This document shows, piece by piece, positions 2,106 through 32,562 of a stretch of DNA of 64,000 nucleotides. The stretch is from the NCBI GenBank assembly GCA_964016885.1, contig OZ024742.1, forward strand, positions 360,716,001 to 360,780,000, given 5' to 3'. Every line of letters starts with the position of its first letter. The stretch's first letter is position 1. Made by a program: the position numbers and the translations under genes. This DNA comes from Eledone cirrhosa (lineage: Eukaryota). The notes beneath the pieces are model-generated. The model worked only from the letters and a program-made list of their open reading frames with translations, was not told where the DNA came from and did no database searches.

Positions 2106-2310
2106 ATGGCTATGCTAAGAGTAGGCTGTTTAAATGCGCGTGGCCTGGGCTCAACTTGGAAGCAAGCAATGCTTCTAAATGACCTCAGGTCACAACGTAT
2201 AGATGTGATGGTTATTTGCGAGGCCCGGATCAGCAACATGCGACAGCTGGCCCCCACCTTTGATGACTTTGAGATGCACGCATCTCTCTGTCAGCCTGGA
2301 GGTGGGGTGG
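2106..2310 (+). CDS. Tx1 ORF2 N-terminus (AP endonuclease start), separated from the main ORF by a 1-nt frameshift
   Basis: MAMLRVGCLNARGL...DVMVICE is the APE N-terminal motif. It joins GVVVLLQKHLGLATQMVHLDPEGR if one G is added in ggtggggtgga (2301-2311). Confidence 0.85.
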
Positions 2311-2353
2311 AGTTGTCGTTCTGCTGCAAAAACATCTGGGTCTCGCAACACAG

Positions 2354-5300
2354 ATGGTACATTTGGACCCGGAGGGTCGACTAGTGGTTCTGGACCTTGG
2401 CAGTGGTAAAGGCGGAGCGTTTAGGTTGGTAGCCGCCTACGGCCCTTTCGGGTCAATGCGGCCGGACTTCTTCCATCGTCTGGAGACTTTTCTAGGGACG
2501 TCCCGCTCCTTGCTATTAGTGGGGGACTGGAATGGTATCCTAGATGCACGCTGGGACTACGTAGGGGCCTGCCCCAATAGAGAGGGGTGTAATAGCCTCA
2601 AAGGGTTAATCGGGCGATTTGACCTGGCCGATAGATATCGACTAGATTTTCCGACTGCGCCAACCTGGACTTGGGAGAATCGTAGTGGATCATCTAGGTC
2701 GTACCTAGATAGGTTCTTAGTTAGAATTAAGGATAAGGACTTTTTAAGTTGTCCAAAAATGCGCATGGTTGGCTATTCAGACCACAAATTAGTGACCTGC
2801 ATGGTCAACCTTGACAGAACTCATAGACAGGGACCTGGTTACTGGAAGCTCAACTTGTCCTTACCGGCAAGTAAGGCTTACAGGAACCGGATTAGCACTT
2901 TAGTTAAGGAGCGGTTGACGGGCGCCATCGTCAACAGCAGGTGGTGGGGAGCTCTCAAAAGAGAGATTAGAGTAGTCTCTATAGAATTTAGTAAGGAGTT
3001 AGCCTCAAATAGAAATAGGAAGGACAGGGAGTTGGTAGATAGTGTAGAAGAGGCAATTAGAAGCGGCGACGTGGCCAGAGTGCTAGCGTCGAGAACGGCC
3101 CTGGGCCAGTTCTTCGACGCGAAGCACGAAGGCTGCATCGTCCGAAGCAAAATATGTGCTCTGGGAAACGAGGGGACCAAAGCTGTTAGCTGGGCCCGCG
3201 TGACAGAAGCCAAAAGAGGGAGCAGATCCACTATCCGGTCTTTGCGAGACCAGGATGGACGGGTGATCCTTGAACCTAAGCAGATGTGCAAGGCTTTTCA
3301 AAAGCACTTTGCTGGATTGTTCGGAAGGGGCGGGGGGCCGGTTGGGGACGTGGACTTCGGTCCATACCTCGACGGCCTGCCGCGTCTCTCGGACAGGGAG
3401 GCGAAGTCCTGCGAGGAGCCGATTTCAGCCGCTGAGATAGAGGACGTGCTGAGCCAATGCGGCAAACGCAAATCCCCGGGTCTCGATGGTCTTCCATACG
3501 AACTATATCTAGCTATGCCGGACTTGTTCCCCGAACTCCTCGAGGCGGTCTACTGCAACTGGCAACAGAACGGGAGAATTCCCTGTGCTGTGACCAAGGG
3601 CGTAGTCACGCTAGTGAGGAAGGACGAGAACAAGGGGGACGATATAAATAATTTGAGGCCCATAACTCTGCTAAATACAGAGTTACAGATTTTGGCCAAG
3701 GTGCTAGCAAAGAGGTTGGCGCTTGTCGTGGGCAACCTGGTGGGAGATGCGCAGACATGTGCTATCCCGTCCAGGTCCATCCACGATAACCTCCACCTCA
3801 TGCGATACATCATAGAGAGGGTTGGGAACGAACCCGGCTTTGGTGGGGCCCTGATCAACTTGGATCAATCTAAGGCATTCGATAGGGTCGACCATGGTTA
3901 CCTGGATGCGGTGCTAGCGGCGGCAGGCTTCGGACCCGTTTTCAGGGGCTGGATCAATGCCATGCACAGCAGCCGCATCTGCTCTAGGGTCAAGGTGAAC
4001 GGCTACCTCTCGGAACCGTTCGAAATCGCACGGTCCATCCGACAGGGGTGCCCTCTCTCCTCCCTTCTGTATGTAATGACTCTAGAGCCACTGCTGCGGA
4101 AGTTGGAGTTGTTGCAGGGCATCCCGTTGGAACCGGGATTGCGGAAAGCGATGTCAGCCTACGCCGATGACGTAACAGTAATGGTGTCGACGGCCTCGGA
4201 AATCAGGACGATCGGCACCTTACTGGAGGAGTACGAAAGGTTTACAGGGGCTAAGCTGAACCGGGACAAGTCGATCGGTCTGCAACTCGGCACATGGAGG
4301 GGCAGATCGATGCCCTCCGATGGCGTCGTCGGGCGCTGGACGGAGGGCCCGGTGAAGTTGCTCGGGGTCTGGTTCGGACCAGACCTCCAGGTGGAGAAGA
4401 ACTGGGGTGAGGTGACGAACAGGGTGTTTGCACTGACCCAGAAGTGGGCCGAGTGCAAACTGTCCCTGAAAGGACGGGCGGAGGTGGCGAACACTTATAT
4501 AGCGTCCGTCATCTACTACCGCCTGACCGTTGTGCCTTGCCCAAGGGAAACGCTCGCCAAAATGGAGCGCGCACTCTTCCAATTCCTTTGGAAGAAGCGG
4601 GCTCCTATGGTGAGGAGATCCATCTGCTGTCAACACCCTTCGAAAGGAGGGCTGGGGATGCCGTGGCTAATGATACGTAAACACGCATTAAGGCTACGGC
4701 ACCTTCAGGTATTCCTCTCCGGTCAACCGGTGTGGGCCCCGTTTGTGAGGCGAGCCTTTCCCAGACTCGTCTCACTCACCGAGCTGCAATCCTGGGTCAA
4801 GCAAAGACCAAGAAAACTGGGCGCCTGGCACACCGAGTGTGCCCAGGCACTCACAGCTCTCTGGCAGGTGGACCTGGCTGTCAGTGGAGAATCCACCTCG
4901 TCATTCTATAGAGGGCTGGTGGTTAGCAGGTGCGACGACGCCCTCGGAGAAGCCCTAGGCATGGAGGAAGACGAACTGGCCAACCTGTTCAGTAGGACAT
5001 TCAGCCCGGGACCCATGGATAACTTCCAGAGGTCCCTGGTCTGGCAATGCTACAGAAGGGCTCTGCCCGTTCGAGAAAGGCTCTACAGACACGGGCGCCC
5101 GGGTAGGGACCCATCGAAAAAGATCTGTCCCAGATGCGTGTGTGACGAGGAAACCGTTGCACACGCATTGGTACACTGCTCGGGCATTGCCGATCTGTGG
5201 GGTTATGTCGAACAACTGCTGTCAAGGGTGGGACCAATCTGGTTGACCACCGAGTCTATTGTAACGATCAAGCCGCCTCCCCTCTTCAAAAACGAAGGAG

Positions 5301-5542
5301 AGGCGGTGTTTCTGTGCATAATAGCCATGGCGAAAGAGGTTGTATGGTGGACGCGTCTGAAAGGACTGAGGTCAGACACCTTTCTCTCTGGCCAACAACT
5401 GGTCCGTTTCTTCCGATATCATTTCGGAAGAAGGATCAGGATGGAGAGAGAGGTGCTGCACCCCAGCCGTTTCTATGAAAGATGGGTGAAAGTGGCGAGA
5501 ATGGCCCGTGTGAATGGGCCTTCACTCTACATTAGACTATAG
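2354..5542 (+). CDS. Tx1/L1 ORF2 polyprotein: AP endonuclease + reverse transcriptase + C-terminal CCHC zinc knuckle
   Basis: APE motifs DPEGR, GDWN, SYLD, SDH. RT motifs KSPGLDGLPYE, RPITLLN, LDQSKAFDRVDH, QGCPLS, YADD. Also GGLG and CPRC-x8-H-x4-C. 1062 aa uninterrupted. Confidence 0.95.
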   Translation: MVHLDPEGRLVVLDLGSGKGGAFRLVAAYGPFGSMRPDFFHRLETFLGTSRSLLLVGDWNGILDARWDYVGACPNREGCNSLKGLIGRFDLADRYRLDFPTAPTWTWENRSGSSRSYLDRFLVRIKDKDFLSCPKMRMVGYSDHKLVTCMVNLDRTHRQGPGYWKLNLSLPASKAYRNRISTLVKERLTGAIVNSRWWGALKREIRVVSIEFSKELASNRNRKDRELVDSVEEAIRSGDVARVLASRTALGQFFDAKHEGCIVRSKICALGNEGTKAVSWARVTEAKRGSRSTIRSLRDQDGRVILEPKQMCKAFQKHFAGLFGRGGGPVGDVDFGPYLDGLPRLSDREAKSCEEPISAAEIEDVLSQCGKRKSPGLDGLPYELYLAMPDLFPELLEAVYCNWQQNGRIPCAVTKGVVTLVRKDENKGDDINNLRPITLLNTELQILAKVLAKRLALVVGNLVGDAQTCAIPSRSIHDNLHLMRYIIERVGNEPGFGGALINLDQSKAFDRVDHGYLDAVLAAAGFGPVFRGWINAMHSSRICSRVKVNGYLSEPFEIARSIRQGCPLSSLLYVMTLEPLLRKLELLQGIPLEPGLRKAMSAYADDVTVMVSTASEIRTIGTLLEEYERFTGAKLNRDKSIGLQLGTWRGRSMPSDGVVGRWTEGPVKLLGVWFGPDLQVEKNWGEVTNRVFALTQKWAECKLSLKGRAEVANTYIASVIYYRLTVVPCPRETLAKMERALFQFLWKKRAPMVRRSICCQHPSKGGLGMPWLMIRKHALRLRHLQVFLSGQPVWAPFVRRAFPRLVSLTELQSWVKQRPRKLGAWHTECAQALTALWQVDLAVSGESTSSFYRGLVVSRCDDALGEALGMEEDELANLFSRTFSPGPMDNFQRSLVWQCYRRALPVRERLYRHGRPGRDPSKKICPRCVCDEETVAHALVHCSGIADLWGYVEQLLSRVGPIWLTTESIVTIKPPPLFKNEGEAVFLCIIAMAKEVVWWTRLKGLRSDTFLSGQQLVRFFRYHFGRRIRMEREVLHPSRFYERWVKVARMARVNGPSLYIRL

Positions 5543-7127: not shown

Positions 7128-7168
7128 GTAGTCATGGCTAAGTGGTTAAGAGGTTTTGATTTACAATC
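7128..7168 (+). mobile_element. 5' head (A-box) of a tRNA-derived SINE interrupted by the RTE element
   Basis: tggctaagtggttaagagg...ttacaatc. The B-box half resumes at ~10447. Confidence 0.6.
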
Positions 7169-10100
7169 GTAGAGATGCTAGAGTGAAAGGAAATTGATGT
7201 ATGCTGTGTGCAAGAGACTAGATGGAGAGGAGAGTCTGCTAGAGTCCTTGTAGGAAAAAGTCGATGCTACAAATTTTTCTGGGTGGGAAATGATGGGATG
7301 GGTGGTGTAGGTATACTACTAGCTGACAAGTGGGTAGATAAAGTAATCTCAGTGTACAGGGTAAATGCAAGAATCAATAAACTCAGACTAGTCCTGAATA
7401 AAACAATTACCACAATAATATCAGCTTACGCACCCCAATCGGGGTTGCCAGACGAACTTAAGGATAGATTTTACGAGACCCTAATGCACACTACTGCTCT
7501 AACAGACGACAATGACTTCCTAATCATCGCAGGAGATTTTAACGGACACGTAGGTAAACACTGTGACGGCTTCAATAGAGTCCATGGAGGCCATGGGGTT
7601 GGCACAAGAAATGAAGAAGGATTCAGACTTCTAGAATTCTGCGACGCCAATGACATGTCGATATGTAACACAAACTTCAAAAAACCGACAACCACCTGAT
7701 CACCTATAGATCAGGGGAGCATTCTAGTAAGATAAATTTTATCCTCATCAGAGGACGTGACAGAAGGACGGTCGTAAACACAAAAGCCATCCCTAGTGAG
7801 GAATGTACCTCCCAACATAGCTTAGTTGTCAGCGACCTCACAGTCAGAACTAGACGAACCTGGAAACAGAGGCCAACCTGGAGAAGAAAGATCTGGAAGC
7901 TGAAAGACCCCTCAGCCAGTAACAGATTTAAAGATATTTTAATCAACGCCTACGACAGTAAAGAAGAACCGATAGAGACATTCAATGTAGAAGAGCACTG
8001 GGAGTTCCTAAAAAAATAACTTACTAGAGGCGACAGATGAGGTCTGTGGCTGGAGTAAGACAACAAGCAGGAGGAGAGTGACTTGGTGGTGGAACAATAA
8101 GGTAGATGAGGCAGTTAAGGTTAAGAGACAGGCATGGAAAGAATGGAAGAACAGGGGGAGCAGGGTACATTACATAGAGACCAAGAGGGAAGCTAGGCGA
8201 CAAGTATACTTAGCTAGGAAGGAAGCAAAGGATAGAAAATTCAAGCATGTTTTGCAACGTGAGGACCAGAAACAGGCGGTGTTCAAGATTGCGAGGCAGT
8301 GTGTCAGAGAGAATTGTGATGTCATTGGAGAGAAGTGTATCCGGAATGATAAAGGTGAGCTTGCCCTCACAAGTGCTGAGAAGAAAAATGCATGGAAGAG
8401 TCATTATGATAGATTACTAAATGAGGAGAATGCATGGGAAGAAGAGACCCTACCCCAAGTAGACCCTATAGAGAGGCCAGCAGTACAAATCAGCAGCAGC
8501 GTAGTAAGTAAGGCAATCAAAGATATGAAGATGGGGAAGGCAACCGGTCTATCGGGTATAGCTGCTGAGATGCTGAAGGCATCTGGGTCTGTAGGTCACA
8601 CTATAACCACACGTATTGTTAACCAGGTAATACTAGAAGGTGTCATACCAAAAGATTGGTGCAGTAGCATCATTGTCAACTGCTACAAAGGTAAAGGTGA
8701 TGCATTCGATAGAGGAAACTATAGAGGTATAAAGCTGATGGACCAGGTCATGAAAGTAACAGAAAGAGTTATAGCACAGTTGATTAGGGACCGGGTGAAA
8801 CTAGATGAGATGCAATTTGGGTTTGTACCAGGAAGAGGCACCACTGATGCCCTCTTCCTTGTGAGGCAGTTACAGGAAAAGTACCTAGCTAAAAGTAAGC
8901 CACTCTACCTGGCATTCGTCGATCTCGAGAAAGCCTTTGACAGAGTTCCACGTGCTGTAATCTGGTGGGCTCTTAGAAAACTAGGAGTAGATGAATGGCT
9001 TGTGAAAGCTGTACAAGCCATGTATAGGGGAGCAGTCAGCAAAGTTAGGATTAGTAATGAGTATAGCGAGGAATTTAGCGTACAGGTTGGGGTCCACCAG
9101 GGCTCTGTTCTTAGCCCCCTCCTGTTCATCATAGTCCTGCAGGCAATAACGGAGGAGTTTAAGACCGGATGCCCATGGGAACTCCTGTATGCTGATGACC
9201 TCGCACTTATAGCTGAATCTATGGTAGAACTAGAGAAGAAATTCCAAACTTGGAAGCAGGGACTAGAAAGAAAGGGTCTCAAAGTCAACATGACAAAGAC
9301 TAAGGTCCTTTAAGTAGACGAGAAAACAGAACCCAGATCCCTCAGGGGAATGGCCTTGCTCAGTATGTAGGAAAGGTGTAGGTAGGAACTCCATTCTCTG
9401 CCCCAAATGTAAACAATGGGTACACAAGAGATGTAGCGGGATCTCAGGAAGCTTAATTAAGAATGTAGGCTTCACATGCAGCAGCTGTACTGGGACAGCA
9501 AGCAGCAAACAGCCACAGGAAACAAGTACCACCAATTTCTGGGAGGGCTCTGTAGACAGTAGACAGCTTCTGCTACCTAGGTGACCGAATTAGCAGCGGA
9601 GGTGGATGTTCAGAAAGTACAATAACTAGGGTAAGAACGGGATGGAAGAAGTTCAGGGAACTACTACCACTGCTAGCTGCAAAAGGCTTCTCCCTCAAAA
9701 GGAAAGGCAGACTGTATGATGCGTGTATCTGAACAGCAATGTTACATGGTAGTGAGACCTGGGCGCTGAAGGTGGAAGACTTACGTAGATTAGAGAGAAA
9801 CGAAGCCTGCATACTCTGATGGATGTGTAATAGTAATATACGTGAACGACAAAGCATAAATGAATTGAGAGAGAGACTGAACATAAGAGGAATCAAATGC
9901 TGTGTGCAGGAGAGGCAGTTGCGCTGGTATGGACATGTGATGCGTATGAAGGATGACAGCTGCATAAAAAGGTGCAGAGCACTAGAAGTTGATGGAAACT
10001 GCGGAGTGGGGAGACCCAAGATGACCTGGGATGAGGTGATAAAGGCCGACTTTACCCAGTTACACCTCTCAAAGGCGATGACACACGACCGTAACCACTG

Positions 10101-10450
10101 GCGTCACGCAGTAATACAGAGTACCCGACCTCCCATGAGTACAAGCTGAAGCATATAGACACTATGCCCCCACACCCTCCACTGCAAGGTGGTCGTGGAG
10201 GTGCCACGGCAAAAAAGCACCCAGCCCACACTGTAAAGTGGACGTGTAGGCGCCACGAAAAAGCACCCAGCACTCACTGTAAATGAGGTTGGTGTTAGGA
10301 AGGGCATCCAACTGTAGAAATCAAGCCAAATCAGTTCCTGTATGAGCAAGGCATGGTCAGCTGACCAGACACTGCCCACAACAGGACAACCCGTCTAACC
10401 CATGCTAGCGTGGAAGAACGGACGTAAAACGGTGATGATGATGATGATGA
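7166..10450 (+). mobile_element. RTE-clade LINE, near full-length, decayed
   Basis: APE (VQETRW, SAYAPQ, GDFNGHVG), RT, PHD-like finger and C-terminal RWYGHVMRM...GRPK..W, then a 3'UTR ending aacccatgctagcgtggaa...(GAT)n. Confidence 0.93.
7208..10149 (+). pseudogene. RTE ORF (APE-RT-PHD) broken by frameshifts and stops; largest piece 8078-9313 is the RT
   Basis: YRGIKL, QFGFVPGRGTTDA, FVDLEKAFDRVP, GVHQGSVLSPLLF, YADD. Frameshifts at about 7690, 8010, 9310 and 9550; TGA stops at about 9730 and 9817. Confidence 0.9.
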
Positions 10451-21218: not shown

Positions 21219-21578
21219 TCATCATCATCGTTTAACGTCCATCTTCCACGCTAGCATGGGTTTAGACGGTAATTTTCCCACTTGAGGCAAGATTGGTTGT
21301 CTTGCTCATATAGGACTGTCTGGCGGGTTTTCTACGGCTGGATGCCCTTCCTAACACCAACCATGTTTACAGTGTGGACTGGGAGGTTTTTACCGTGTTA
21401 CCTACACGGCCACATTACAGTGTGGACTGTGTTTTTTTGTCGTGACACCTACACAACCTCATTTATTTTGGACTGGATGTTGTGGTACCAACATAACTTT
21501 ACAGAGAAAGGGGATGGTGTGGATGGGGTGGGGGTAGTGGGATGGAGGTGTATTTTGGTAAGAGGTGCCTACTGACTG
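21219..21578 (-). mobile_element. RTE subfamily-B 3'UTR
   Basis: Reverse complement of 26458-26820. Confidence 0.88.
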
Positions 21579-21802
21579 TTTCACCACCATCATCATCATC
21601 TTTGTTTTTTTTTTCCCACGCTCGCATGGGTTGGATGGGTTTTTTTCAGTGATGTCCATACAAAATGTTTTGGTAATAATGAAACCCTTGGTATTTGAAA
21701 CAAAGAAGGCACAAATTACTCTAATCATGTGAAGCATGTAATATATATGTCAATAATCTAAACATAACAATGATGTAGCTTTTAGTATACTAATATTATA
21801 GA

Positions 21803-24609: not shown

Positions 24610-25060
24610 GGTTTCTATAGCAACCACCATACAGAGTGTACTGGGTGCATTTTATCATGAGACCAGCGTTACCACCATACAGAGTGTACTGGGTGCAATT
24701 TATCATGAAACCAGCACTACCACCCTACAGAGTGTACTGGGTGCAATTTATCATGACACCACTACCACCATACAGAGTGTACTGGGTGCATTTTATCGTG
24801 GTACCACCACTACCACTTTACAGAGTGTACTGGGTGCAAGTTATAGCACCAGCACTACCACCATACAGAGTGTACTGGGTGCAATTTATTATAGCACCAG
24901 TATTACAGTATTACATTACAGAGTGTACTAGGTACATTTTATAATAGCACCAGCACTATCACTTTACAGAGTGTATTGGGTGCAATTTACCATAACACCA
25001 GCATTATCATTTCACAGAGTGTACTGGGTACATTTTATCATGGTTCCATCACTACCGCTT
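24610..25060 (-). repeat. ~45-48-bp minisatellite derived from the RTE 3'UTR repeat, ~9 copies
   Basis: Minus strand reads ...aaaatgcacccagtacactctgtatggtggt..., homologous to aaagcacccagcccacactgtaaagtgg in the RTE UTR. Confidence 0.8.
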
Positions 25061-26356: not shown

Positions 26357-26367
26357 ATATATACACA
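26321..26367. repeat. (TA)n microsatellite
   Basis: atatatat run. Confidence 0.9.
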
Positions 26368-26821
26368 CCTCTCCAAGACAATGTCACTGGACCGAGATCT
26401 TTGGCGCTACACAGTAATACAGAAGACCTGCTTTGCCTAAGTACAAAGCGAACCCTACAGTCAGTAGGCACCTCTAACAAAACTACACCCCCGTCCCACT
26501 ACCCCTACCCCATCCACACCACCCCTGTCAATGTAAAGTTATGTTGGTACCACAGCATCCAGTCCGAAATAAATGAAGTTGTGTAGGTGTCACGACAAAA
26601 AACACACAGTCCACGCTGTTATGTGGCCGTGTAGGTAACATGGTAAAAACCTCCCAGTCCACAATGTAAACGAGGTTGGTGTTAGGAAGGGCATCCAGCC
26701 GTAGAAAACCCGCCAGACAGTCCTATACGAGCAAGACAACCAATCTTGCCTCAAGTGGGAAAATTCCCGTCCAAACCCATGCAAGCGTGGAAGATGGACG
26801 TTAAACGATGATGATGATGAT
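26368..26821 (+). mobile_element. RTE subfamily-B 5'-truncated copy (last codons + 3'UTR + (GAT)n tail)
   Basis: LSKTMSLDRDLWRYTVIQKT is homologous to 10065-10149. The UTR contains 2-3 copies of the 48-bp unit. Confidence 0.88.
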
Positions 26822-26974
26822 ACTGTAGTAAAAGTTAAGTGGAAATATCCAAGAGTATGAGCACTCAGTCCATAGAATGAGTTTAATATAAATAATTACA
26901 ACAGTGACATAAACAGGTACTCAATACTTAGGGTGTAGAGTGGGTAATAGGAAAAGAGTCAGGACCCCGACGGC

Positions 26975-27883
26975 TATAGTGAAGAATTTAGCGTGCATAT
27001 TGGTGTCCATCAGGGCTCTGTTTTTACCCTTCTTCTGTTTGTTATCATTCTGCCAGCAATAACGGAGGAGTTTAAGACCAGCTTCCCATGGGAACTTCTG
27101 TATGCTGATGGCCTAACCCTTATAGCCGAATCTATAGCTGAACTAGAGATGAAATTCCAAACCTAGAATCTAAAGGTTTTAAAGTCAACCTGGCAAAGAC
27201 TAAAGTCCTAGTAAGTAGAAAGGATAACAGGGCCCAGATATCCTCTGGGAAATGGCCCTGGTCAGTGTGCAGAAAAGGAGTAGGTAGAAATTCCATTTTA
27301 TGTACCAAATGCAAGCAATTGGTGCACAAGAGATGTAGTAGGATCTCAGACAGGCTAACAAAGAATGTAGGTTTTACTTGTGGCCAGTGCACAGGTGCAG
27401 TAAGTAACAAGAACCCTCAGGATACAACCACCTTCAAATGTTCAGAGGGCTCAGTTGAAGTGGTAGATAGTTTCCGTTACCTGGGTGACCAAATCAGTAG
27501 TGGGAGGAGGGTATTCTGAAAGCACAGTAACCAGAGTGAGATTGGGTTGGAGAAAGTTCAGGGAGCTACTACCGTTACTAACTACAAAAGGTTTTTCTCT
27601 CAAAATAAAAGGCAACTGTATGATGCATGTATACCAACAACAATGTTGCACAGCAGTGAGACCTGGGCACTGTGTGCTGAGGACCTGCGGAGATTGTAAA
27701 GAAATGAAGCCTCCATGCTTTGATGGATGTGCAATAGTAATATACGCGAACGGCAAAGTATAAATATACTGCGTCACAAATTAGGTTTAAGAGGGAACAG
27801 TTGTTGCATGCAGAAGAGATTGTGTTGGTATGGACATGTGATGTGTATGAAGGATAACAGCTGTATAATAAGGTGTAGAGCAC
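26975..27883 (+). pseudogene. RTE fragment (RT end, PHD-like finger, C-terminal domain), fused to the satellite
   Basis: GVHQGSV..LLF, PWELLYADG, CRKGVGRNSILCTKC..VHKRC..FTCGQC, FRYLGDQI, WYGHVM. Colinear with 9062-9983. Confidence 0.9.
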
Positions 27884-30800
27884 CCAGTCCACACAGTAAA
27901 GTGGTCATGTAGGTGTCACAACAAAAAGCACCCAATCCACGCTGTAAAGTTGTCATGTAGATGTCACAACAAAAGTGTCCAGTCCACACTGTAAAGTGAT
28001 CATGTAGGTGTCACAACAAAAAGCACCCAGCCCACACAGTAAAGTGGCCAATAAGGTGTCACAACAAAAAGCACCCAGTCCACACAGTAAAGTGGTCATG
28101 TAGGTGTCACAAAAAAAAAGCACCCAATCCATGCTATGAATTGTCATGTAGATGTCACAACAAAAGTGTCCAGTCCACACTGTAAAGTGCTCATGTAGGT
28201 GTCACAACAAAAATCACACAGTCCACACAGTAAAGTGGTCATGTAGGTGTCACAACAAAAAGCACCCAGCCCACACAGTAAAGTGGCCATGTAGGTGTCA
28301 CAACAAAAAGCACCCAGTCCACACAGTAAAGTGGTCATGTAGGTGTCACAAAAAAAAGCACCCAATCCACGCTGTAAATTGTCATGTAGATGTCACAACA
28401 AATGTGTCCAGTCTACACTGTAAAGAGGTCATGTAGGAGTCACAACAAAAGTGCCCAGTCCACACAGTAAAGTGGTCATGTAGGTGTCACAACAAAAAGC
28501 ACCCAGTCCACACAGTAAAGTGGTCATGTAGGTGTCACAAAAAAAAAGCACCCAATCCATGCTATGAATTGTCATGTAGATGTCACAACAAAAGTGTCCA
28601 GTCCACACTGTAAAGTGGTCATGTAGGTGTCACAACAAAAATCACACAGTCCACACAGTAAAGTGGTCATGTAGGTGTCACAACAAAAAGCACCCAATCC
28701 ACGCTGTAAAGTTGTCATGTAGATGTCACAACAAAAGTGTGCAGTCCACACTGTAAAGTGATCATGTAGGTGTCACAACAAAAAGCACCCAGCCCACACA
28801 GTAAAGTGGCCAATAAGGTGTCACAACAAAAAGCACCCAGTCCACACAGTAAAGTGGTCATGTAGGTGTCACAAAAAAAAAGCACCCAATCCATGCTATG
28901 AATTGTCATGTAGATGTCACAACAAAAGTGTCCAGTCCACACTGTAAAGTGCTCATGTAGGTGTCACAACAAAAATCACACAGTCCACACAGTAAAGTGG
29001 TCATGTAGGTGTCACAACAAAAAGCACCCAGCCCACACAGTAAAGTGGCCATGTAGGTGTCACAACAAAAAGCACCCAGTCCACACAGTAAAGTGGTCAT
29101 GTAGGTGTCACAAAAAAAAGCACCCAATCCACGCTGTAAATTGTCATGTAGATGTCACAACAAATGTGTCCAGTCTACACTGTAAAGAGGTCATGTAGGA
29201 GTCACAACAAAAGTGCCCAGTCCACACAGTAAAGTGGTCATGTAGGTGTCACAACAAAAAGCACCCAGTCCACACAGTAAAGTGGTCATGTAGGTGTCAC
29301 AAAAAAAAGCACCCAATCCACGCTGTAAATTGTCATGTAGATGTCACAACAAATGTGTCCAGTCTACACTGTAAAGAGGTCATGTAGGAGTCACAACAAA
29401 AGTGCCCAGTCCACACAGTAAAGTGGTCATGTAGGTGTCACAACAAAAAGAACCCAGTACACACTCTAAAGTGGTCATGTAGGTGTCACAACAAAAAGTG
29501 CCCAGTCCAAACAGTAAAGTGGTCATGTAGGTGTCACAACAAAAAGCACCCAGTACTCACTGTGAAGAGGTCATGAAGGTGTCACAACAAAAGTGCCCAG
29601 TACACACTGTAAAGTGGTCATGTAGGTGTCATGACAAAAGTGCCCAGTCCACACTGTAAAGTGGTCATGTAGGTGTCACGACAAAAGTGCTCAGTACAGA
29701 CTGTAAAGTGGTCATGTAGGTGTCGCAACAAAAGTTCCCAGTCACCACAGTAAAGTGGTCATGTAGGTGTCACAATAAAATGTGCCCGACCACACAGTAA
29801 AATGGTCATGTAGGTGTCACAACAAAAACCACCCAGTCCACACAGTAAAGTGGTCATGTAGGTGTCACAACAAAAAGCACCCAGTCCACACAGTAAAGTG
29901 GTCATGTAGGTGTCACAACAAAAAGCACCCAGTCCACACAGTAAAGTGGCCAATAAGGTGTCACAACAAAAAGCACCCAGTCCACACAGTAAAGTGGTCA
30001 TGTAGGTGTCACCACAAAAAGCACCCAGTACACTGTAAGGTGGTCATGTAGGTGTCACAACAAAAAGTGCCCAGTCCACACAGTAAAGTGGTCATGTGGG
30101 TGTCACAACAAAAAGCACCCAGTACTCACTGTAAAGTGGCCATGTATGTGACAACAGAAAGTACCCAGTCCATACTGGAAAGTGGTCATGTAGGTGTCAC
30201 ATCAACCCCTCCCCCGTCCACACTGTAAAGTGGTCATGTAGGTGTCACAACAAAAGCCCCCAGTCCACGCTGTAAAGAGGTTATGTAGGTGACACAACAA
30301 AAGTGCCCAGTACACACTGTAAAGAGGTCATGTAGGTGTCACAACCAAAGTGCCCAGTCCACACTGTAAATAGGTCATGTAGGTGTCAACAAAAGTGCCC
30401 AGTCCACACAGTAAACAGGTCATGTAGGTGTCACAACAAAAGTGCCCAGTACACACTGTAAAGAGGTCATGTAGGTGTCACAACAAAAGTGCCCAGTCCA
30501 CACAGTAAAGAGGTCATGTAGGTGTCACAACAAAAGTGCCCAGTACACACTGTAAAGAGGTCATGATGTAGTTGTCACAACAAAAGTGCCCAGTCCACAC
30601 AGTAAAGAGGTCATGTAGGTGTCACAACAAAAGTGCGCAGTACACACTGTAAAGAGGTCATGTAGGTGTCACAACAAAAGTGCCCAGTACACTGTAAAGA
30701 GGTCATGTAGGTGTCACAAAAGTGCCCAGTCCACACAGTAAAGAGGTCATGTAGGTGTCACAACAAAAGTGCCTAGTACACACTAAAGAGTTCATGTAGT

Positions 30801-32233
30801 TGTCACAACAAAAGCACCCAGTCCACACAGTAAAGAGGTCATGTAGGTGTCACAACAAAAGTGCCCAGTACACACTGTAAAGAGGTCATGTAGGTGTCAC
30901 AACAAAAGTGCGCAGTACACTGTAAAGGGGTCATGTAGGTGTCACAACAAAAGTGCCCAGTACACACTGTAAAGAGGTCATGTAGGTGTCACAACAAAAG
31001 TGCCCAGTACACACAGTAAAGAGGTCATGTAGGTGTCACAACAAAAGTGCCCAGTCCACACTGTAAAGAGGTCATGTAGGTGTCACAACAAAAGTGCCCA
31101 GTACACACAGTAATGAGATCATGTACGTGTCACAACAAAAGTGCCCAGTCCACACTGTAAAGAGGTCATGTAGGTGTCACAACAAAAGTGCCCAGTACAC
31201 TGTAAAGAGGTCATGTAGGTGTCACAACAAAAGTGCCCAGTACACACTGTAAAGAGGTCATGTAGGTGTCACAACAAAAGTGCCCAGTACACTGTAAAGA
31301 GGTCATGTAGGTGTCACGACAAAAGTGCCCAGTACACTGTAAAGAGGTCATGTAGGTGTCACAACAAAAGTGCCCAGTACACACTATAAAGAGGTCATGT
31401 AGGTGTCACAAAAGTGCCCAGTCCACACTGTAAAGAGGTCATGTAGGTGTCACAACAAAAGTGCCCAGTACACACAGTAAAGAGGTCATGTAGGTGTCAC
31501 AACAAAAGTGCCCAGTACACACTGTAAAGAGGTCATGTAGGTGTCACAACAAAAGTGCCCAGTACACACAGTAAAGAGGTCATGTAGGTGTTACAACAAA
31601 AGTGCCCAGTACACACTGTAAAGAGGTCATGTAGGTGTCACAACAAAAGTGCCCAGTACACACAGTAAAGAGGTCATGTAGGTGTCACAACAGAAGTGCC
31701 CAGTACATACTGTAAAGAGGTCATGTAGGTGTCACAACAAAAGTGCCCAGTACACACAGTAAAGAGATCATGTAGGTGTCACAACAAGAGTGCCCAGTAC
31801 ACACATTAAAGAGGTCATGTAGGTGTCACAACAAAAGTGCCCAGTCCACACTGTAAAGAGGTCATGTAGGTGTCACAACAAAAGTGCCCAGTACACACAG
31901 TAAAGCGGTCATGTAGGTGTCACAACAAAAGTGCCCAGTACACACTGTAAAGAGGTCATGTAGTTGTCACAACAAAAGTGCCCAGTCCACACTGTAAAGA
32001 GGTCATGTAGGTGTCACAACAAAAGTACCCAGTCCACACTGTAAAGAGGTCATGTAGGTGTCACAACAAAAGTGCCCAGTCCACACTGTAAAGAGGTCAT
32101 GTAGTTGTCACAACAAAAGTGCCCAGTCCACACTGTAAAGAGGTCATGTAGGTGTCACAACAAAAGTACCCAGTCCACACTGTAAAGAGGTCATGTAGGT
32201 GTCACAACAAAAGTACCCAGTCCACACTGTAAT
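27879..32233 (+). repeat. 47/48-bp satellite array (~90 units) derived from the RTE 3'UTR, with a 762-bp HOR
   Basis: gtgtcacaacaaaaagcacccagtccacacagtaaagtggtcatgtag grades into gtgtcacaacaaaagtgcccagtacacactgtaaagaggtcatgtag. Identical ORFs at 28144/28906 are 762 bp apart. Confidence 0.95.
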
Positions 32234-32562
32234 GTGTTCATAACCACTTTACAACATCAACCGGCTGGTTTTGCGTCATATCAAAGAAATGAAACACTTT
32301 TAGTCCTGTAGAAGCCATTTCTATATTAAACTTGATGTTTACACTCTCCTAATGTATTGAGTACCTAACTGTGTTGTACACCCGAACCTGGGACTCACAC
32401 ACATTTCTATACATATGTGTGTATATATAACTTAAAGAACTGCTATGAAGTTCCTCATTGGTTGTTATATAATATGGGAGTTTGTGCCAAAGAATGTTGA
32501 ACAAGAAAGAGGTGTTAGTCTCAAATTTCACTAGTTTTCTTGTTTTCTTTACTGATGGCAAT

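Follow-up and report, generated by a model that had tools for sequence, protein, structure and literature searches.

A 48-bp satellite array on a decayed RTE-type LINE fragment in Eledone cirrhosa probably reflects rearrangement at one site, after the transposon-derived satellite was already established

Results

A decayed LINE fragment joined to a tandem array

In the window (a stretch of 64,000 nucleotides from Eledone cirrhosa contig OZ024742.1), a decayed LINE fragment continues directly into a long tandem array, and the locus comprises the following features.

26917–26975, plus strand: part of a different dispersed repeat, adjoining the fragment on its upstream side (83–97% matches, 8 fetched loci)
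26975–27883, plus strand: decayed RTE-type LINE ORF fragment (end of the RT and C-terminal region), 5'- and 3'-truncated
27259–27847, plus strand: tract ~99% identical to a single other copy, L002 (6 mismatches in 589 bp)
27879–27883, plus strand: AGCAC overlap between ORF and array, equivalent to 9978–9982 of the reference element
27883–32232, plus strand: array of ~92 monomers of 47–48 bp, member of a genome-wide satellite
27885–29308, plus strand: higher-order block, in which 27885–28546 recurs at 28647–29308 (99.85% over 662 bp)
30271–32232, plus strand: homogeneous 47-bp block with its own variants
32239–32253, minus strand: 15-nt inverted unit-like piece just past the array end (by eye)
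32288–32370, strand unassigned: dispersed-repeat piece downstream of the array (78–92% matches, several fetched loci)

Related sequences lie upstream in the window.

7166–10450, plus strand: RTE-type copy used as reference, from another subfamily; broken, 2–3 UTR units and (GAT)n present
21219–21579, minus strand: RTE 3' end with a short UTR repeat
24623–25056, minus strand: second, independent 9-copy array of a diverged unit version (TRF period 48; 73–78% to the UTR unit, E 3e-8)
26365–26821, plus strand: separate short RTE 3' end that belongs to a third subfamily and has (GAT)n after 2 UTR units

We take the LINEs of the window to be RTE-type from their structure and C-terminal motifs, their relatives carrying no clade names. 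RTE elements end in short tri- to pentamer repeats, and (GAT)n is present at 10435–10450 and in paralogs and absent at 26975–32233. The best relatives are APE+RT proteins of 1000–1100 aa (52–62%), in keeping with the single ORF of ~1000–1100 aa with APE endonuclease and RT described for the clade (PMC1291365). The same paper describes RTE 3'UTRs as unusually short, with 177 bp cited for SR3, which is exceeded by the ~340 bp of the reference copy and the ~500 bp of the fragment's subfamily. No structured RNA or ribozyme was found in 7000–29500, where Rfam gave four weak matches to microRNA models, all far under the gathering score.

Across two frames, the fragment corresponds to residues 696–1002 of an APE+RT relative of 1048 aa, with 9–31 stops per frame, and its ORF diverges by a median of 9.65% from 28 other paralogs (L002 apart). 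It aligns to 9062–9982 of the reference copy, as the initial annotation had described; however, the identity is only 75.7%, and this presumed full element belongs to a different subfamily and is itself broken, being covered by five tblastn pieces in three frames (residues 66–1047 of the 1048-aa relative) with the Pfam domains Exo_endo_phos and RVT_1. The tandem array was placed by TRF at 27883–32241 (period 47, 92.6 copies, 87% matches), and by eye the last unit stops at 32232. No RTE tail or (GAT)n was found 3' of the array in the window. TRF and alignment agree with the earlier description of a ~90-copy, ~4.35-kb array on an RTE fragment lacking the ORF end and (GAT)n, and of only 2–3 units in three RTE 3'UTRs of the window. 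The inverted piece beyond the array is possibly a fold-back scar.

L002 lies on the same contig, 15.4 Mb from the nearly identical tract. Outside the tract, the two copies differ by 31 mismatches and 4 indels over 26975–27258 and by 4 mismatches over 27848–27883, and the tract likely reflects non-allelic gene conversion between dead copies. A segmental duplication was rejected, as the flanks (43 kb versus 50 kb) are without extended homology and identity falls to just 75% in the 5' parts. The conversion-like tract speaks for non-allelic exchange at the window locus itself.

Homology of the unit to an RTE 3'UTR repeat

The proposed alignment of the array unit to RTE 3'UTRs beat shuffled controls: against seven UTRs, z was 7–27, and none of the 300 shuffles reached the real score in any of the 14 comparisons. 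The array scored 64–110 against the UTRs of the fragment's own subfamily (four copies), compared with 40–66 against 26560–26680. The unit originally cited is a real UTR unit (26588–26635), but it is that of the third subfamily and not the fragment's own. By alignment, the satellite unit and the tandem 3'UTR repeat of the RTE-type LINE are homologous, and we infer the direction to be from LINE to satellite.

Full UTR units numbered four or fewer in 110 of 118 tails of fetched loci, a biased set in which the counting program overlooked the arrays of L075 and L024 and ended early in two others. In twenty arbitrary 10-kb pieces, tail motifs occurred 8 times and the TRF arrays did not exceed 3.7 copies (units were counted as TRF rows, local-alignment counts being inflated by gaps and discarded), giving a background density of about one RTE tail per 50 kb per strand.

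Arrays of the unit elsewhere in the genome

We inspected 18 other arrays of the unit; array counts are lower bounds, each search having yielded 40 scored candidates chosen by query similarity. An RTE tail in sense follows 8 of the 15 arrays with a visible 3' end, counting the window as a miss in this pure-array query and setting aside three more arrays with no end in view. Compared with the background density, this bears out the suggested sense linkage of arrays to RTE. Arrays of 4 to >400 units lie inside or directly before RTE tails, and the ORF end, UTR head and tail are intact around the arrays of L075 (96 copies), L076 (17), L074 (22) and L024 (25). In other arrays, neighbouring units have locus-private variants in common.

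On C25, the region 18.500–19.124 Mb was probed with 13 further samples, every one of which contains pure array. The array reaches position 19,124,329, the last sample lies past its end, and two 30-kb stretches are also pure array. This array, at least 624 kb as known from samples and not from continuous reading, likely exceeds 600 kb and 10,000 units. Further long arrays exceed 29 kb. The initial annotation had presented the array of the window as a satellite caught being born, which does not hold for a family that already has arrays of thousands of copies.

Alternatively, the satellite could be ancestral, a few of its units having been captured into the 3'UTR by RTE elements. Among the native units, the genome-wide monomer indeed takes a roughly central place (median distance 8 changes, 3 to the nearest unit), and capture has also been considered for Ogre arrays (PMC7004042). 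However, native units differ by 7–13 changes between subfamilies ~25% apart in the ORF, whereas the big arrays are 82–98% homogeneous. Moreover, five small arrays are expansions of their subfamily's own unit, 9–13 changes from the common monomer, and one array of as much as 18 kb is still followed by an RTE tail. We thus regard capture as improbable.

Many arrays start abruptly at their 5' side. Because such starts resemble those of 5'-truncated retrocopies, an RNA intermediate may have carried some of the short arrays to their sites. No convincing target-site duplication was found at the 27 arrays examined.

The ORF/array junction

Past AGCAC, the sequence matches the UTR unit instead of the ORF, with a loss of ~300 bp that comprised the ORF end and the UTR head; 28 of 29 paralogs have their first unit-like motif 233–348 bp beyond the junction point. 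All 29 fetched paralogs run on into the ORF end at this position, and the junction recurred at 0 of 39 other scored loci, on which grounds a mobile composite element of ORF and array was rejected. The join looks microhomology-mediated, as first proposed, and a 5-nt overlap is expected in 0.13% of random breakpoint pairs, while 5–7% of ORF positions give a 5-nt overlap to some phase of the unit. However, the overlap may truly be only 3–5 nt, because paralogs vary at the AGCAC position (by eye, AGCAC in 12 of 29 and AGCGC or AGTGC in most others, with AGCCC in the closest relative). The duplicated array block starts 2 nt past the junction, compatible with either deletion or expansion having come first.

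The junction region adjoins >50 kb of another satellite. A join between two repeats in such surroundings could be an assembly artefact, but we find this very improbable: the join keeps the register of the monomer and shows microhomology, the array contains ordered private variants, and contigs of sample S1, which may be the assembled sample, carry one private variant as well as window-type 5' ORF sequence. Among the matches listed for short-read contigs (4 runs, 2 samples), none had at least 31 letters on each side of 27883, pieces near the junction reaching 47 nt at most. A search of sequencing runs listed 5 matching runs from 2 studies; fewer than half of the words were found in each, and none of those listed was from RNA.

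Growth of the array

The higher-order duplication has an offset of 762 bp, or 16 monomers. Monomers of the 30271–32232 block differ by 3.1 changes among themselves and by 7.1–7.7 from those of the other blocks. Variants form a gradient along the array, with three regional blocks, and monomer distance rises from ~5.5 at short lags to 7.2–7.6 at lags 40–60. Because the duplication is 99.85% identical compared with ~10% divergence of the ORF, growth of the array continued long after the LINE insertion. The young duplication beside an old fragment makes later unequal exchange the likely growth route, one of two that the initial annotation had offered; the other, reiteration by RT during TPRT, does not fit near-identical multi-monomer duplication and regional variant blocks beside ~10% ORF divergence.

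According to that second route, insertion itself created junction and array in one event, through a jump or reiteration of RT along the UTR repeat, and a new satellite is starting here. The rarity of a 5-nt overlap, the sense orientation and the many other arrays with a tail and an abrupt 5' start would suit such an event. But the array is without the tail or (GAT)n, where TPRT begins, and array and ORF differ widely in age (0.15% in the duplication versus 9.65%). The junction is unique, whereas arrays are common without it; the lack of convincing target-site duplications, the three variant blocks and the thousands of copies already in the family speak against it as well. An RT-jump origin of the long array is therefore largely refuted, and we consider it highly improbable. 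Nor is the junction supported as the trigger of amplification that had been proposed: it is not needed, because arrays grow in elements without such a deletion.

The source of the first units

Only 0–4 changes separate the majority units of the three blocks from the genome-wide monomer, compared with a median of 8–10 to 33 native units (21 copies of the fragment's subfamily). The array consists of an RTE UTR unit, as claimed initially, but its derivation from the LINE's own UTR is uncertain, since the majority units are nearer to the genome-wide monomer than to native units. The array may instead have been imported from the mature satellite by template switch or ectopic repair and joined via AGCAC to an unrelated dead ORF fragment, never having been its own UTR. 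The 3' block has two changes in common with an array at C3:376.79 Mb, which lies 0.6 Mb from the ORF conversion partner, and L075 suggests import at another locus. On the other hand, both changes also occur in L024, a local expansion of the fragment's own subfamily, and the best ungapped matches to the C3:376.79 array reach only 92–93%. The nearest native units are just 3–4 changes off, and native units are decayed; three private monomer variants of the window are absent from all fetched arrays, and the array orientation is that expected in situ. Import thus appears possible but doubtful, and it is a variant of our preferred explanation that differs only in the source of the array's first units. 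Recent copying from another fetched array was not seen, at most 16% of 31-mers being common with 22 others.

Discussion

We consider the window array, with a probability of about 0.8, to be a mid-sized member of an established 48-bp satellite that grew by DNA-level unequal exchange long after insertion and decay of the LINE, the junction having arisen once, at this site, by microhomology-mediated deletion or repair. Most RTE 3' ends were observed to have no more than four units, and the observed series extends from 4 to >400 units inside or before RTE tails to the C25 array. Each UTR repeat would act as an unstable minisatellite seed, and in a few of them one local duplication after another would lead to runaway growth. 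Arrays would exchange sequence between loci, with the result that one monomer dominates many of them. At the window locus, which lies in a region rich in satellites and prone to recombination, later rearrangements would have removed the ~300 bp between ORF and array as well as the tail. The event is likely a later one-site rearrangement of a transposon-derived satellite and not the birth of one.

RTE 3'UTR repeats might serve not only as seeds but also as landing pads, ectopic repair returning the mature monomer to the UTRs of RTE copies from several subfamilies, with thousands of tails forming a network that spreads and homogenises the satellite. We give this idea an even chance. L075 (C27) contains both native units, then ~94 genome-wide monomers, 12–14 changes from its subfamily's full native unit, and then its own tail. 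Such an element, with the common monomer between its own UTR units, suggests satellite re-entry. In L085 and L073, the common monomer precedes tails whose native units differ by 9–11 changes. If true, re-entry would provide a concrete route for satellite spread between chromosomes.

Taken alone, the window locus is ordinary, a deletion scar adjoining a satellite. Its family can serve as a model, with all stages from 2 to >10,000 units in one assembly. With seeds at very many dispersed LINE tails, array growth rates, the influence of chromosome position and the exchange of sequence among loci become directly measurable.

Comparison with known systems

The route from transposon to satellite is itself already known from Ogre 3'UTRs and SINE-derived satellites. 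As in other TE-derived satellites, the monomer here is homologous to an internal repeat, intermediates have element flanks on both sides (L024, L074, L075, L076 and others), and long homogeneous arrays exist (C25 at 18.50–19.12 Mb; others >29 kb). We found no report of an RTE-UTR-derived satellite in the open-access literature searched, and the text of one review has no match to RTE (PMC9659126).

That review lists several LINE-derived satellites: the cetacean common satellite (L1 3' part), chicken HinfI/SCR1 (CR1 3'UTR and ORF2) and Drosophila 18HT (HeT-A/TART). Like the present satellite, these come from a LINE 3' region, but their monomers are listed as similar to or containing LINE pieces (PMC9659126). 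In Tetris and DINE/Helentron elements, an internal short array likewise gave rise to satellites and the elements disperse the repeat, although these are DNA transposons and not retroelements (PMC7004042, PMC9659126, PMC12628747). The SINE-derived satellites of squamates (sSat) resemble our case in their non-LTR source and many loci; they are described as reaching ~1000 units and being homogeneous within and between loci, with unequal recombination proposed (PMC10702118). The sSat unit is, however, a tandemised SINE portion, whereas the repeat here was already tandem in the LINE UTR and one array likely exceeds 10,000 units.

Ogre elements (Ty3/gypsy) have 3'UTR repeats from which PisTR-A and nine satellites of Lathyrus sativus are reported to derive (PMC7004042, PMC9659126; Macas 2009 as cited there). 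As described there, both systems start from a short tandem repeat in the non-coding 3' part of a retroelement, and both form a continuum from short arrays in elements to long satellites, with long arrays at few loci. Unlike Ogre, the donor here is a non-LTR RTE-type LINE in an animal, in which several subfamilies carry versions of one unit.

Results

The window (G000:C3:360716001-360780000, in a 3.0-Gb genome) holds a decayed piece of an RTE-type LINE ORF, RTE features being taken from PMC1291365, followed directly by an array of the tandem repeat of RTE 3'UTRs.

26975-27883, fragment, residues 696-1002 of a 1048-aa endonuclease and reverse transcriptase (RT) relative
27879-27883, junction, AGCAC overlap of fragment and array
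27883-32241, array, period 47, 92.6 copies (TRF, window)
26917-26975 and 32288-32370, abundant dispersed repeat, partly palindromic, with pieces on either side of fragment plus array
24623-25056, minus strand, independent 9-copy expansion of a diverged UTR-unit version
1-1447, 54-56-bp satellite, ~6.5 kb counting the 10 kb upstream, preceded by an unrelated 48-bp array
2273-5542, plus strand, open 1089-aa frame of another LINE type with endonuclease, RT and zf-RVT matches, apparently intact
32759-64000, 15-bp satellite starting 500 bp from fragment and array, running past the window end for at least 20 kb and recurring in two more samples, with a 16-bp satellite ~130 kb further on

The fragment has stops in every frame and aligned at 75.7% identity with positions 9062-9982 of another RTE-type copy in the window; the alignment stops at AGCAC, where the UTR-unit match starts. 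No RTE tail (the 3' end after the UTR units) was found 3' of the window array. Two real monomer pairs compared with seven UTRs gave z values of 7-27, above all 300 shuffles every time, and the fragment's own subfamily provided the best-fitting UTR. Because the TRF array, the alignment to AGCAC, the missing tail and this shuffle control agree, the initial annotation had described fragment and array correctly. However, the "full element" used there for comparison belongs to another subfamily and is itself broken, while a third subfamily supplied the unit that was quoted.

With a query of four monomers and no ORF sequence, arrays turned up on eight or more other contigs. On contig C25, twelve samples within 18.500-19.124 Mb and two 30-kb stretches were array, ending at 19,124,329; if continuous, this sampled array would span at least 624 kb (~13,000 monomers), a candidate centromeric or heterochromatic block. 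It finishes in a short inverted monomer piece. Further arrays exceeded 29 kb, and one exact 48-mer, the common monomer, was the commonest in 9 of 25 array segments compared. A 3' end was visible in 15 arrays of this search, the window included, and out of view in three more. Eight of the 15 carried an RTE tail directly 3' and in sense, so that arrays elsewhere are tied to RTE as proposed; the tail was absent from the window array and six others. As background, 200 kb of arbitrary sequence contained 8 tail motifs and no array above 3.7 copies.

Most of the 30 loci from an array-plus-tail query, biased by construction, held arrays of 4-36 units, and five of these arrays consisted of the own-subfamily unit. 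At four loci (L075, L076, L074 and L024), 17-96 units lie between a retained ORF end and UTR head on one side and the tail on the other. Given the tail-linked arrays, these intact loci and the own-unit arrays, expansion of the RTE UTR repeat is recurrent and does not require ORF deletion, which speaks against the junction as the amplification trigger. Six loci at G000:C25:19.1-22.9 Mb (L136, L138, L139, L152, L169, L186) share identical array flanks around 9-19 units; they are duplicated segments whose arrays later changed length.

The junction itself matched across in 0 of the 39 other loci among the 40 scored of 4165 candidates. All 29 fetched copies run on into the ORF end at this position, and 28 of them reach their first UTR unit after a further 233-348 bp, so ~300 bp were lost here if the event was intra-element. 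Since a 5-nt overlap is expected in just 0.13% of random breakpoint pairs, a microhomology-mediated join is favoured, although 5-7% of ORF positions could give such an overlap and only 12 of 29 paralogs have AGCAC there.

Growth by RT reiteration during insertion, one of the two routes first proposed, did not fit the array. Positions 27885-28546 are repeated at 28647-29308 with one mismatch in 662 bp, against a median ORF divergence of 9.65% from 28 paralogs. The array comprises three blocks, each with its own variants; monomers differ at 3.1 sites inside the 3' block and at 7.1-7.7 across blocks, rising with distance. We infer serial local duplication, as predicted by established unequal exchange theory, rather than one reiteration round on 2-4 template units. 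None of the 27 arrays examined had a convincing target-site duplication. Counting against this DNA-level reading, RNA-mediated movement of short arrays is possible because many arrays start abruptly at the 5' side, like truncated retrocopies.

The fragment shares a 589-bp tract (27259-27847; 6 mismatches, ~99%) with L002, a locus 15.4 Mb away (G000:C3:376.18 Mb), including identical stops and a frameshift in both dead copies. Outside it, 31 sites and 4 indels separate their 5' parts, and the last 36 bp contain 4 mismatched sites. Because the tract stops 5' of the junction and no flank duplication was found between the loci, its sequence likely reflects gene conversion. Both copies start within ~8 bp of one element position, with a similar short motif upstream.

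Only 0-4 changes separate the majority units of the window array from the common monomer, against a median of 8-10 (nearest 3-4) for 33 native units; as judged from these distances, the array likely exchanged with the satellite family or was imported. The clearest case of monomer import is L075 (G000:C27:16.86 Mb), an element of a different subfamily in which native units are followed by ~94 common monomers (L075:3017-7617) and then its own tail; its full native unit is 12-14 changes from the common monomer. Convergence can account for weaker cases, since arrays were found by likeness to the common monomer, itself close to the centre of the native units. At L073:4453-5322 (G000:C27:19.17 Mb), array head and tail resemble, by eye, different RTE-related families, possibly through recombination within the array.

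Discussion

The 48-bp satellite very probably does derive from RTE tails, as the initial annotation held. Its reading of a satellite being born at this site does not stand, the family being established on at least eight other contigs and, if continuous, over at least 624 kb on C25; the window locus is probably a late, single-site rearrangement within it. The possible re-entry of the common monomer into LINE tails is the part worth following.

The genome is probably that of an octopod, judging by the appearance of its repeats. No RTE-UTR-type satellite was found in the octopus repeat papers PMC13282606 (0 hits for 'satellite') and PMC9115989; their supplements or repeat libraries may hold the family. 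LINE UTRs are a listed route to satellites (PMC12628747), SINE-derived satellites of squamates occupy many loci with between-locus homogeneity (PMC10702118), and for Ogre elements satellites from tandem repeats in the retroelement 3' region are documented at all stages of expansion (PMC7004042, PMC9659126).
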